45,633 nucleotides of DNA from a virus, in UHGV virus genome UHGV-0361696. The stretch is one strand, 5' to 3'. Of the stretch, positions 1,709 through 7,120 are shown piece after piece (the stretch's first letter is position 1; every line of letters begins with the position of its first letter). The translations under genes were made by a program, and so were the position numbers. The notes beneath the pieces were generated by a model. It did no database searches, was not told where the DNA came from, and worked only from the letters and a program-made list of their open reading frames with translations.

Positions 1709-2083
1709 ATGAGCAATAAAGACATCGAGCAGGAAATCCAAGACAAAGGATTAACAGCGCCACGCATCACTCCACAGCACATTCAGTCACTCATTGCTGG
1801 TGAGTATTATTTTACGGCGGCAGACGGCGTACAGCATTCGATGCACAAGCAGGATGAGCTAACCAGTCTCGTTGGTCCACATAGAGAAATTGAATTCCTT
1901 ACCTTTTGTGTCTTGGTATTGAAAAATGGATTCACAGTCACAGGTGAAAGCGCCTGCGCTAGCCCTGAAAATTTCGATGCTGAAATTGGTCGCAAGATTG
2001 CGCGCGAAAATGCGGTTAACAAAATTTGGATGCTGGAAGGATACCTACTTAAACAGCGTCTTTCGGAGGTAAATAATGGCTAA
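1709..2083 (+). CDS. hypothetical protein (124 aa)
   Basis: ORF with an RBS-like GGAGG context immediately after the capsid terminator. Confidence 0.5.
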   Translation: MSNKDIEQEIQDKGLTAPRITPQHIQSLIAGEYYFTAADGVQHSMHKQDELTSLVGPHREIEFLTFCVLVLKNGFTVTGESACASPENFDAEIGRKIARENAVNKIWMLEGYLLKQRLSEVNNG

Positions 2084-2303: not shown

Positions 2304-2382
2304 TTGGGGTTTCTATGGACGCAAGATGCGACAAATTTACCGCGCGAAAGATGATGATGCTTATCTTCCGTGATAAAAGAAA

Positions 2383-2404
2383 AGCCCCGGAAGGGGCTTA
2401 TTTT
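2383..2404. terminator. bidirectional terminator closing the minus-strand operon 4675->2403
   Basis: AGCCCCGGAAGGGGCT hairpin flanked by T-runs on both strands. Confidence 0.5.
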
Positions 2405-2591
2405 AACATGCAGATGCGGTCCAGTAATCGCCATAATCATTTACGTAATACTTGGTTAAACCAACCCATCCGCCACGCCTACACATTGCTTTAAACCTTT
2501 TCATGACCTGACTTTTTGTCAGGGTTATTACGTTGCCGTTTCCATCTCTCACAAAATCACCGCCAGATTTGTATGGTTTCTTTTCCATCAA
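2403..2591 (-). CDS. hypothetical protein (62 aa)
   Basis: Last gene of the minus operon. Overlaps the upstream gene by 4 nt. Confidence 0.4.
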   Translation of the reverse strand: MMEKKPYKSGGDFVRDGNGNVITLTKSQVMKRFKAMCRRGGWVGLTKYYVNDYGDYWTASAC

Positions 2592-3127
2592 TCAATCCTC
2601 ATCGGCATAACAATAACTTTGACATTCTCGCCAGTAGGCGCACTGATGTTTGCGACGGCGGCGTTGATGTTGCCGTTCAGTTCAAAGCGCACGCTTTTAT
2701 ATTTAGGGTTAAACAGCTTCGCCAGCTTCTCTACGTCTGCCAGATATTTGGCGTTGAAGCCGATTTGCTCTGTTGCCGCTGTCTGCTTTGGGATGGCACT
2801 ATCAATGTCAGGGAATCGGCCATTAATCTCAGAGCAGATACCTGCGCCTACCATGATTTCATGCTCGTCATGGTAAGTAACAATACCTGTTTTGGTGTCC
2901 AGTAGAGCATACGCATAACGCTTAGTTGGCGACTTGCTGACAGAAACGATAACGTTATCTTTCAATTTATTTTCATGCTTACTGGCAATCATGGCGCGAT
3001 GACCGTCAGTAGCGGCAACTCGACCATCAGGCATAAAGCAAATGCCATTCAGGTAATAGCGAACATCCTGTTTGGCCTGGAACATCAACGCGCCTTCAAG
3101 AAGTAACTTGCTGATTTTTAATTTCAT
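2588..3127 (-). CDS. truncated DNA polymerase III beta-clamp (DnaN) homologue, domain II plus partial domain III, no domain I
   Basis: Translation contains QDVRYYLNG...ATDGHR, GRFPD, IGFN and C-terminal VIVMPMRI. These are near-identical to E. coli DnaN domain II/III segments (QDVRYYLNG, ATDGHRL, GRFPD, IGFN, VVMPMRL) as recalled from memory. The product is 179 aa from the ATG at 3127, against about 366 aa for a real clamp. Confidence 0.65.
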   Translation of the reverse strand: MKLKISKLLLEGALMFQAKQDVRYYLNGICFMPDGRVAATDGHRAMIASKHENKLKDNVIVSVSKSPTKRYAYALLDTKTGIVTYHDEHEIMVGAGICSEINGRFPDIDSAIPKQTAATEQIGFNAKYLADVEKLAKLFNPKYKSVRFELNGNINAAVANISAPTGENVKVIVMPMRID

Positions 3128-3300
3128 CACTTCACCTTTATCATGTGTTGCTTTGCAACCTTCAGGCATTCATCGAAAATCTTGCCTTTCTTTTCACTCT
3201 GGTTGCGCATGTAGTGGGTAATTGCAGCCTCTATGGCCGCGTTGTCGATGCCTGGCAGTTTTTCGCGCAGGTTTTTCTCTATGAATTGTTCGGGGTTCAT
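3127..3300 (-). CDS. hypothetical protein (57 aa)
   Basis: ATG at 3300. Its stop overlaps the ATG of the clamp-like gene (TGATG). Not in the ORF track because it is under 60 aa. Confidence 0.35.
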   Translation of the reverse strand: MNPEQFIEKNLREKLPGIDNAAIEAAITHYMRNQSEKKGKIFDECLKVAKQHMIKVK

Positions 3301-3436: not shown

Positions 3437-4252
3437 TCACAACTTCTCCAGAATAGCCAGAACTTCACTTAACTCAGCGGAAGGAAGGCGCAAAAATTCT
3501 TCTGTTTCCTGTGCCACGTGGCCCTCAGCGACAACCATGTGATCTGCTTCTTTCAGCAACTGAATCAGGCGGTCAATCGGTTTAACTTTTTTTGCCTTGA
3601 GCGTTTTCGCCGTCACCTTATCCTTGCCCTGCGCTTTCGCTTCCTCAACGGCAGCATCAATAACGTTAACGGCATCATCTCCATGCTCGCGCGCCACTGC
3701 AACAGCGTTGGCATAGCTGATTTGGCCTGCGTTGATACGTTGCTTGATGGCATCAGGTACGTCACCAAGTGACAGGTGCATCTGCACATCAGAAACTGAG
3801 CGACCGACCTTCCTGGCGATTTCTTCATTCGTCCACCCGAACCCTTTCAGGCGCACATACGCCTTTGCACGCTCAAGCGGGTCGAGTTGCTTACCCTGAC
3901 TGGATGACACCATGAAGGCGATTTTATCCGCTTCATCGCCGGTGAAGTCTTTGCACTCAATGCGCGCAATTGGTACGCCGCGCTCAATAGCTCGCAGCGC
4001 GCCAAGATAACGATGCTGGCCGTCAAGAATCTTAATGCGCTTTCCGGCAGCATCAGGAATAACAGTTAACGCCGGGATTGGCTGTCCTGATTCCCAGCAC
4101 TGCGCGAAGTATTCAACGTGCTGCTCATCGGCTTCGCGGATGTTGTACCCCGGCTCAAGATAAAGCTGGTCGACAGGAACCTGATAACCTTTGTTGACCA
4201 CGATTCCGCCGCGAGTTTCTTTGTCTGAGTAAATTTTTCCGAGAGATGTCAT
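3437..4252 (-). CDS. ParB-like nuclease domain protein
   Basis: ILDGQHRY motif (ParB/Srx fold) plus a helix-turn-helix-like middle region. Start chosen at MTSLG with a GAGGA RBS. Confidence 0.6.
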   Translation of the reverse strand: MTSLGKIYSDKETRGGIVVNKGYQVPVDQLYLEPGYNIREADEQHVEYFAQCWESGQPIPALTVIPDAAGKRIKILDGQHRYLGALRAIERGVPIARIECKDFTGDEADKIAFMVSSSQGKQLDPLERAKAYVRLKGFGWTNEEIARKVGRSVSDVQMHLSLGDVPDAIKQRINAGQISYANAVAVAREHGDDAVNVIDAAVEEAKAQGKDKVTAKTLKAKKVKPIDRLIQLLKEADHMVVAEGHVAQETEEFLRLPSAELSEVLAILEKL

Positions 4253-4372
4253 CTTTTCCTCACTTTGATAAACAGATTGCGCTGGCAATGGCGAATCCGA
4301 TAACGATTAATGCCAGCTTTATTTTGAACTTATCCCACGCTTTCAGGTCTTCTTTGCGGATTTCGTGGCGGA

Positions 4373-4675
4373 TCATTGTGATTCTCCGATGGCTTTAGCA
4401 ATTGCGGCATAAGCCTTGCTCAAAGCAGTGGCATTCCTTTTTGTTGGCGTAGTGAAGACTACAAGCATCTCCAGAGCCTCCAGCAATTCCGGTGCTGCGG
4501 CCATCATTCGTTGGTTGGCAATTTGAACCTCAACTTCAGGGTCAAACTCAACCCAGCCGACAGGAATAATCATTCCATAAGACTGGTCGTCCTCTGTTGA
4601 TTTTGGCCCTATTGCCCTGCCGTTATCTATAAACCACGGCCCCGGCGTACCTTTAAATTCTTTCATCTTCATCAC
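4373..4675 (-). CDS. hypothetical protein (100 aa), first gene of minus operon
   Basis: ORF directly downstream of a TTGACG-17-TATAGT promoter. Confidence 0.5.
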   Translation of the reverse strand: MMKMKEFKGTPGPWFIDNGRAIGPKSTEDDQSYGMIIPVGWVEFDPEVEVQIANQRMMAAAPELLEALEMLVVFTTPTKRNATALSKAYAAIAKAIGESQ

Positions 4676-4706: not shown

Positions 4707-4735
4707 ACTATAGCGGCACCCTCAATCTACGTCAA
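4707..4735 (-). promoter_or_regulatory. sigma70-like promoter TTGACG-17 nt-TATAGT containing the recurring TTGACGTAGATTGAG motif
   Basis: Reverse complement of 4707-4735 reads TTGACGTAGATTGAGGGTGCCGCTATAGT. It is almost identical to the plus-strand promoter at 28296-28324. Confidence 0.5.
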
Positions 4736-6963: not shown

Positions 6964-7039
6964 TGGTTCCCGCGACAGGATTCGAACCTGTAATCATCCG
7001 ATTATGAGTCGGGTGCTTTAACCAGTTAAGCTAAACGGG
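6964..7039 (-). tRNA. tRNA-Met (anticodon CAT; could be tRNA-Ile2 if lysidinylated)
   Basis: Cloverleaf: acceptor TCCCGTT/CGCGGGA, D-stem GCTT/AAGC, anticodon loop CTCATAA, T-arm ACAGG-TTCGAAT-CCTGT, encoded CCA. Confidence 0.75.
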
Positions 7040-7043
7040 AATT

Positions 7044-7120
7044 TGGTGCACCATACTGGATTCGAACCAGTTACCGATTGCTTAGAAGGCAATTGCTCTA
7101 TCCTGATGAGCTAATGGTGC
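7044..7120 (-). tRNA. tRNA-Arg (anticodon TCT)
   Basis: Perfect 7-bp acceptor GCACCAT/ATGGTGC, D-stem GCTC/GAGC, anticodon stem ATTGC/GCAAT with loop CTTCTAA, T-arm ACTGG-TTCGAAT-CCAGT, encoded CCA. Confidence 0.8.

Follow-up and report, generated by a model that had tools for sequence, protein, structure and literature searches.

A 179-residue protein encoded on the minus strand of UHGV virus genome UHGV-0361696, at positions 2588 to 3127, is a homolog of the bacterial sliding clamp DnaN (beta) that has been reduced to one and a half domains and keeps the pocket in which beta receives the clamp-binding motif (CBM) of its partners. We call this protein the mini-clamp and the whole 45,633-nucleotide stretch the window; the window is the genome of a Klebsiella-type siphophage resembling Roufvirus, with 92.6% identity to phage pIS4-A (NC_042037) over 88% of the first 25 kb. 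Judging from the residues that are retained, the mini-clamp is probably a free-standing receptor for CBM-bearing proteins. Polymerases, the clamp loader, mismatch repair, and Hda are all organized through the beta pocket, which also serves as a target for antibiotics; here, selection has maintained a natural, small, apparently monomer-sized protein with just this pocket in hundreds of phages and prophages. The mini-clamp points to an unstudied route by which phages exploit or block the host replisome, is a compact scaffold for the study and screening of pocket ligands, and reveals that the clamp fold tolerates a 1.5-domain form.

The mini-clamp is a DnaN homolog with a clamp fold

The homology to DnaN is real and far beyond chance. 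A phmmer search of the PDB returned beta clamps only, with a best E value of 1.3e-12 (query residues 7 to 160 on beta 136 to 295) and a second alignment that places query residues 117 to 178 on beta 311 to 366. A profile of the mini-clamp family matches E. coli beta, whose reference sequence is identical to PDB 1mmi/2pol, at E 1e-33. Among phage families, phrog_947 (phage DnaN) matches the mini-clamp at E 7e-11, and PHROG 3007, with E 1.6e-57, is the mini-clamp's own family by sequence. The AlphaFold2 monomer, built on an alignment of 107 diverse relatives, is confident (pLDDT 96.9, pTM 0.90) and has the DNA-clamp fold, assembled from beta-alpha-beta-beta-beta motifs, that is expected of the DnaN family. 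When this model was used as a Foldseek query, the top matches were to E. coli beta and all significant structural matches were clamps.

A preliminary description, made from the letters of the window, had placed a DnaN homolog at this position and strand and had named five motifs in it. The open reading frame (ORF) exists, with 179 codons plus a stop at 2588 to 2590, and all five motifs map to E. coli beta: QDVRYYLNG (from residue 20) to residues 149 to 157, ATDGHR (from 39) to 171 to 176, GRFPD (from 103) to 239 to 243, IGFN (from 122) to 317 to 320, and the C-terminal IVMPMRI (172 to 178) to 360 to 366. The proposed homology is thus borne out by sequence and profile searches, which give significant alignments to parts of both domain II and domain III, and by the predicted structure. 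An alternative 193-residue version that starts at 3169 was rejected; the 179-residue reading is correct because distant homologs share the start, MKLK or MKIK, at its position. The ATG at 3127 is preceded by a Shine-Dalgarno-like run, AAGGTGAAG.

One and a half domains without the canonical dimer interface

The mini-clamp comprises domain II and the second motif of domain III, that is, three motifs, 1.5 domains, and about a quarter of the ring. The offset between mini-clamp and E. coli residue numbers is +136 up to GRFPD and +195 from IGFN, the change falling between residues 107 and 122; therefore, ∼60 residues (E. coli ∼250 to 309) are gone, which is exactly one beta-alpha-beta-beta-beta motif. 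A sub-profile covering only the C-terminal unit reaches 31.4 bits with E. coli 305 to 366, the second motif of domain III, versus 9.2 bits on 245 to 309, the first motif, to which the only and weak match is LFNPKYKSVRF with LSNEKFRGVRL. The preliminary description, which gave the protein as domain II plus the C-terminal third of domain III, was right about domain II and the C-terminal part, though that part is about half of domain III, one full motif.

Domain I and the first motif of domain III are absent, and with them all four dimer-interface residues; in E. coli beta, these are I78 and F106 in domain I and I272 and L273 in domain III (PMC11139829). Because domain I and the domain III half of the interface are lost, the canonical head-to-tail dimer ring is impossible. 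The earlier statement that the protein, for want of domain I and of the strand used for ring dimerization, cannot be a sliding clamp was correct about both absences and too strong in its conclusion. The CBM pocket of beta is formed by domain II residues 152 to 177 and 242 to 247 together with domain III residues 320 to 365 (PMC11139829), and from these published pocket and interface residues we infer that the three retained motifs are neighbors along the ring and carry the complete pocket-bearing sheet. One further element has changed: the second channel-lining (inner) helix of domain II is replaced by a basic loop, SKSPTKRY (residues 64 to 71; DSSP finds no helix at 64 to 72 of the model), whose proline, P67, is kept in 77% of the family.

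Scores against curated models of DnaN are low. Pfam DNA_pol3_beta_2 and DNA_pol3_beta_3 give 19.3 and 18.2 bits, below the cutoff of 27, and TIGR00663 gives 37.7 bits against a threshold of 137.65. By homology, the mini-clamp is a member of the beta-clamp superfamily; it lacks three features that define DnaN, namely, the three-domain (six-motif) protomer, the dimer interface, and a score above the curated thresholds. We therefore propose a separate family of short clamps for it in place of the name “Pol III beta subunit.”

The clamp-binding pocket is the most conserved part of the family

To compare pockets, we used the 18 residues listed in PMC11139829. Thirteen of them are identical in the mini-clamp and E. 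coli beta, three are changed conservatively (L177A, V247A, and V360I), and two differ (R246S and V344A). Across the 107 relatives, which are ∼180 residues long and 25 to 49% identical to the query, pocket positions have a mean conservation of 0.74 and all other positions one of 0.36. R152, L155, T172, G174, H175, P242, M362, and P363 are kept in at least 90% of the family; pocket residues account for 11 of the 25 positions that are conserved in at least 70%, and most of the others flank the pocket. The proposal that this short protein retains the pocket is therefore well founded, and the conservation of these residues suggests that it binds CBM peptides there. The subsite-I changes L177A, R246S, and V247A are fixed in the clade of this phage; since the family consensus has R/K at 246 and V/L/I at 247, they are a clade-specific trait.

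Operon and local context

The mini-clamp gene belongs to a minus-strand operon that sits inside the head/tail (late structural) gene cluster, in the opposite orientation (Table 1). The preliminary description spoke of five genes under their own TTGACG-17-TATAGT promoter. The operon is there, with five to seven ORFs, and so is the promoter-like site; shuffled sequence has at least as many such sites as the region, which leaves position as the sole support for this one.

Table 1 Features of the mini-clamp gene and its operon (all positions refer to the window)
Feature	Positions	Strand	Evidence or remark
Sigma-70-like promoter TTGACG-17-TATAGT	4735..4707	-	Consensus scan, 10/12 matches
First operon gene, 100 aa, phrog_1273	4373..4675	-	
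Hydrophobic small ORF, 38 aa, between the 100-aa and ParB-like genes	4260..4376	-	tblastn matches in 27 loci
ParB/KorB-like predicted DNA-binding protein, phrog_1033	3437..4288	-	Pfam, PHROG, NCBIfam; start TTG 4288 or ATG 12 codons on
57-aa ORF, phrog_4439, immediately upstream of the mini-clamp	3127..3300	-	tblastn
Domain II equivalent, residues 1-107 (E. coli beta ∼130-243)	2807..3127	-	Alignments, motif offsets
Pocket block QDVRYYLNG	3044-3070	-	In domain II equivalent
Pocket block ATDGHR	2996-3013	-	In domain II equivalent
Pocket block GRFPD	2807-2821	-	In domain II equivalent
Short helix and linker, residues 108-121 (E. coli 244-∼250, then deletion junction)	2765..2806	-	Offsets, secondary structure of the model
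Single beta-alpha-beta-beta-beta unit, residues 122-179 (E. coli ∼314-366)	2591..2764	-	Sub-profile scores
IGFNAKY (N320, Y323)	2744-2764	-	In C-terminal unit
IVMPMRI (V360-L366)	2594-2614	-	In C-terminal unit
61-aa ORF, ATG overlapping the mini-clamp stop (TGATG); doubtful or window specific	2403..2588	-	Sequence
Intrinsic-terminator-like hairpin and T run closing the operon	2399..2382	-	

The 57-aa gene, the mini-clamp gene, and the 61-aa ORF are linked by TGATG stop/start overlaps, the first of which joins the stop of the 57-aa ORF to the mini-clamp ATG at 3127. The 57-aa ORF lies directly 5′ of the clamp in nearly all relatives whose clamp is at least 69% identical, with a constant offset of 173 nucleotides where it is found; L129, a short locus among these relatives, has no tblastn match to any operon gene. 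We considered the 57-aa protein as a supplier of the missing ∼60-residue motif and rejected it on reading its sequence, in which no resemblance to E. coli 250 to 309 was seen and which was judged helix prone. The 61-aa ORF had no tblastn match in 147 loci. Similarity to relatives begins exactly at the clamp stop codon, and positions 2076 to 2587 are therefore a variable segment. Just upstream of this segment, on the opposite strand, a gene at 1709 to 2083 (+) encodes a Phage_gp49_66 family protein (N4 gp49/Sf6 gp66, E 1e-35).

The neighbor described earlier as a ParB-like nuclease is a ParB/KorB-type helix-turn-helix (HTH) protein, and at most a putative nuclease. It combines HTH_ParB and KorB domains with a DGQHR motif (ParB N-terminal domain of the DndB/DpdB type, with a weak TIGR03187 match). 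In close relatives (loci L003 to L020, L096, and others), protein identity to the window is 72 to 93% for the clamp, 98 to 100% for the ParB-like protein, and 89 to 98% for the 57-aa protein. L096 has a sharp boundary, with 95% identity in the 57-aa gene versus 72% in the clamp, which suggests allele replacement or faster evolution of the clamp. Elsewhere among the head/tail genes, the window encodes tRNA-Met (CAT) and tRNA-Arg (TCT) at 6964 to 7040 and 7044 to 7120 (-), as does pIS4-A.

Neighborhoods in other phages and the search for partners

The association with ParB holds in the clade of Roufvirus/Skatevirus-type phages, in which the clamp follows the ParB/KorB-like and 57-aa genes with fixed spacing wherever those are found, and not elsewhere. 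In Shigella phage EP23, a Dhillonvirus, the mini-clamp occupies a comparable place in the head module and is followed by EP23p07 (L002, 6592 to 7356), which has an Nmad5 domain (PF18757, E 2e-58). Nmad5 is a predicted DNA modification protein that is toxic to clone, and a single K-to-E change in it lets phages escape the Tmn defense (PMC11846954). Neighbors in other phages are Dam or C5 methyltransferases, VRR-NUC proteins, SF2 or DnaB helicases, RecT, ArdA, single-stranded DNA-binding protein (SSB), CI/LexA-like repressors, and integrases. No shared partner family emerged: among 529 neighbor ORFs from 43 mini-clamp clusters, the commonest family was present in only 4 of the 43, and a Pfam scan of 113 neighbor ORFs found no family in more than 2. 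What the loci have in common is an early region whose genes serve DNA replication, recombination, modification, and host interaction.

We also looked for CBMs that the pocket might receive. The termini of 1,447 neighboring phage ORFs had one N-terminal QLTMF and otherwise no CBM. The window's proteome yielded no convincing CBM; the sole motif match in the ParB-like protein, QMHLSL, is part of the HTH domain. A PADLOC search gave no match, a result of little weight because PADLOC lists defense systems and not anti-defense proteins.

The phage encodes an SSB, a Sak4-like ATPase, a PDDEXK exonuclease, an SF2 helicase, a T7-type primase, and a 551-aa primase/helicase-like protein for which no PDB relative was found. 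There is no DNA polymerase among the replication genes scanned in the window, and none is annotated in pIS4-A. A rule that carriers always lack a polymerase was rejected: EP23 has one of family A, EP23p36 (L147, 17111 to 20299), a protein of 1,062 residues whose sequence, on inspection, seems to be interrupted by an intein-like insertion that runs from about CLHRHTQVL to VAHN.

What the mini-clamp may do in the cell

The nearest functional likenesses of the mini-clamp, by analogy, would be engineered monomeric beta and the nonring processivity factors of herpesviruses. Herpesvirus UL42 has the clamp fold, is monomeric, attaches directly to DNA, and keeps its polymerase in place. UL42, UL44, BMRF1, and PF-8 have two full domains and serve a virus-encoded polymerase, whereas the mini-clamp comes from a phage without a polymerase and has a pocket of the bacterial CBM type; there is no detectable sequence relationship between them. 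Full-length phage clamps (T4 gp45 and phage DnaN, phrog_947) share the fold and are also phage encoded, but they form closed rings that work with a loader and a phage or host polymerase, and the mini-clamp has neither the interfaces nor a loader. Compared with bacterial beta (PDB 2pol/1mmi), the mini-clamp has 179 residues rather than 366, lacks domain I, the first domain III motif, and one channel helix, and is basic where beta is acidic. Like the mini-clamp, the I272A/L273A variant of beta presents the pocket without a ring, although it is a laboratory mutant with all three domains and the mini-clamp is natural, much shorter, and kept by selection. This monomeric variant still binds DNA, binds delta ∼50-fold tighter than the dimer does, and is unable to tether Pol III for processive synthesis (PMC11139829).

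We lean, tentatively and only slightly, toward a mini-clamp that would sit on phage DNA by way of its basic concave face, as UL42 does on its DNA, without encircling it, and would there hold CBM-bearing host enzymes, above all the host replicase, without a clamp loader. As a free-standing receptor for CBM peptides of the QLxLF or QLxLxF type, it could take up Pol III alpha or epsilon, clamp-loader delta, Hda, MutS/L, or translesion polymerases. Host CBM proteins are the most probable ligands because no shared phage partner or phage CBM was found and the pocket stays host-like, and the host replicase is put foremost because the phage has helicases, a primase, SSB, and recombination proteins but no polymerase. 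DNA binding is suggested by the basic loop in place of the channel helix and by the isoelectric point (pI), which is 9.1 for the mini-clamp and 8.4 for the family median, whereas E. coli beta has a pI of 5.25 and its corresponding fragment one of 5.8.

Several observations weigh against such a DNA-bound receptor for the host replicase. The family is not uniformly basic, 42% of its members being exceptions. If the protein were a tether, a second conserved surface would be expected, yet the candidates for one, K19, K134, and the P67 loop, show only moderate conservation. Full-length DnaN, too, is most conserved at the pocket, so that part of the conservation signal is inherited, and the subsite-I changes in this phage's own clade may give it a ligand specificity different from that of host beta. 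Finally, in Dhillonviruses such as EP23, the mini-clamp coexists with a phage-encoded family A polymerase, in which no CBM-like motif was found.

A somewhat less probable, still quite possible, role is that of a decoy, a free pocket that draws CBM-bearing proteins away from host beta and thereby shuts down some host process that harms the phage or is of no use to it; candidate targets are delta, Hda, MutS/MutL, translesion polymerases, or a clamp-dependent mobile-element or defense factor. This matches the sequestration or clamp poisoning raised in the preliminary description, whose stronger proposal, a module for host-replication takeover or anti-defense, is not supported by the evidence. Conservation that is focused on the pocket, with no clearly conserved second interface, is what competition would require, and the divergence of the clamp, faster than that of the ParB-like gene, fits a constraint on the pocket only or an arms race. 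The company of anti-restriction and host interaction genes in early operons (ArdA, Lar-like proteins, methyltransferases, and repressor/integrase regions) and the tight binding of delta to monomeric beta are also in keeping with it. However, a phage that lacks a polymerase presumably depends on the clamp, loader, and Pol III of its host and would be harmed by blanket competition, and the family's shift to a basic pI is not required for a decoy. If the pocket instead bound a phage DNA transaction enzyme and coupled it to DNA or replication, the candidates would be the ParB/KorB-like protein here, Nmad5 in Dhillonviruses, and methyltransferases, nucleases, or helicases elsewhere. Conserved adjacency to the ParB-like gene in Roufvirus/Skatevirus-type phages, translational coupling to the 57-aa ORF, the position of Nmad5 in EP23, and Dam or C5 methyltransferases near the mini-clamp in several phages speak for such an accessory subunit. 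We nevertheless consider it improbable: neither neighbor survey found a common partner family, the neighboring proteins have no CBM-like terminal motif (that of the ParB-like protein is internal), and the pocket is host-like rather than covarying with partners.

The mini-clamp might also be a new clamp build, a loader-free four-subunit ring of 12 motifs, or an open arc, around phage DNA. Two protomers would pair their orphan half-domains into a pseudo-domain III, and two such dimers would close a D2 ring of 4 × 3 motifs, in place of the 2 × 6 of beta and the 3 × 4 of PCNA and gp45. Twelve is a multiple of three, the retained motifs lie contiguously along the ring, and the internal pseudo-dyads of the clamp fold should topologically allow head-to-head and tail-to-tail pairing; clamp-like phage proteins in BFVD and IMG/VR, moreover, span many sizes, from 160 to 400 residues. 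On the other hand, one of three channel-lining helices is replaced by a proline-containing loop across the subfamily, neither free end has conserved residues, the overall charge is positive, which is not the case for sliding rings, the monomer is predicted confidently on its own, and no clamp loader is encoded. Such an assembly is thus unlikely, marginally more so than an accessory subunit; if real, it would have docking pockets on both faces, and the phage could run the host replicase on its own private clamp. Finally, truncation and DnaN scores below the Pfam and TIGRFAM thresholds might be taken as marks of a captured dnaN decaying without function. Conservation excludes a dead remnant for practical purposes: the ORF stays intact and keeps its length across hundreds of phages and >130 clusters (50% identity), and strong position-specific conservation goes with a confidently predicted fold.

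Distribution and annotation of short clamps

The mini-clamp family is large. A search of 1.84 billion cluster representatives found 138 at E ≤1e-10, nearly all of them 170 to 210 residues long and matched end to end, with full-length DnaN appearing only from about 5e-14. By tblastn, the gene is present in 273 of 50,697 phage records, including phages of Salmonella, Escherichia, Vibrio, Klebsiella, Proteus, Burkholderia, and Pantoea. Large plasmids harbor the gene as well, in regions that resemble prophages, and there PGAP labels it “hypothetical protein”; complete genomes of E. coli had no DNA-level match. A degenerate DNA pattern for DVRYYLNG retrieved 118 ORFs from IMG/VR, most of 170 to 230 residues and about a dozen of full length. 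BFVD contains many phage proteins of 160 to 250 residues with the same overall fold (TMq up to 0.89), among them proteins of Actinobacteria and Bacillus phages. One further candidate, P0238 (1,004 residues, 11 matched stretches), was rejected as a WD40-repeat false positive.

Two labels attached to this family mislead genome annotation. GenBank depositors usually call the protein “DNA polymerase III beta subunit,” and one paper took its gene as a “DNA polymerase” phylogenetic marker. RefSeq phage records (e.g., L001, 21530 to 22066) and PHROG 3007 have “RusA-like Holliday junction resolvase”; we reject this assignment, as a Pfam scan at E ≤10 gave no RusA family and all significant PDB and fold matches are clamps. 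The resolvase name is apparently an annotation error propagated among RefSeq phage records. The kinship with DnaN was recognized earlier, given the many records that already say beta subunit. The 1.5-domain, pocket-retaining architecture and its breadth in phages appear to be undescribed, and our literature search found no functional or structural study of these short clamps.

Other short-clamp subfamilies differ at the C terminus. Members in IMG/VR (L036, L026, L028, L063, and L087) have tails of 10 to 45 residues after the MPxR end, examples being ...DDAFKVVREHLA, ...GLPDFLGLKAKKVA, and a low-complexity tail rich in Ala, Pro, and Glu; these tails might be partner-binding or self-binding peptides. 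A class of phage clamps with 326 residues (L031, 700 to 1680, and L084, 9171 to 10151) has domains I and II and a domain III that is ∼30 residues shorter, which suggests a series of intermediate clamp lengths in phages.

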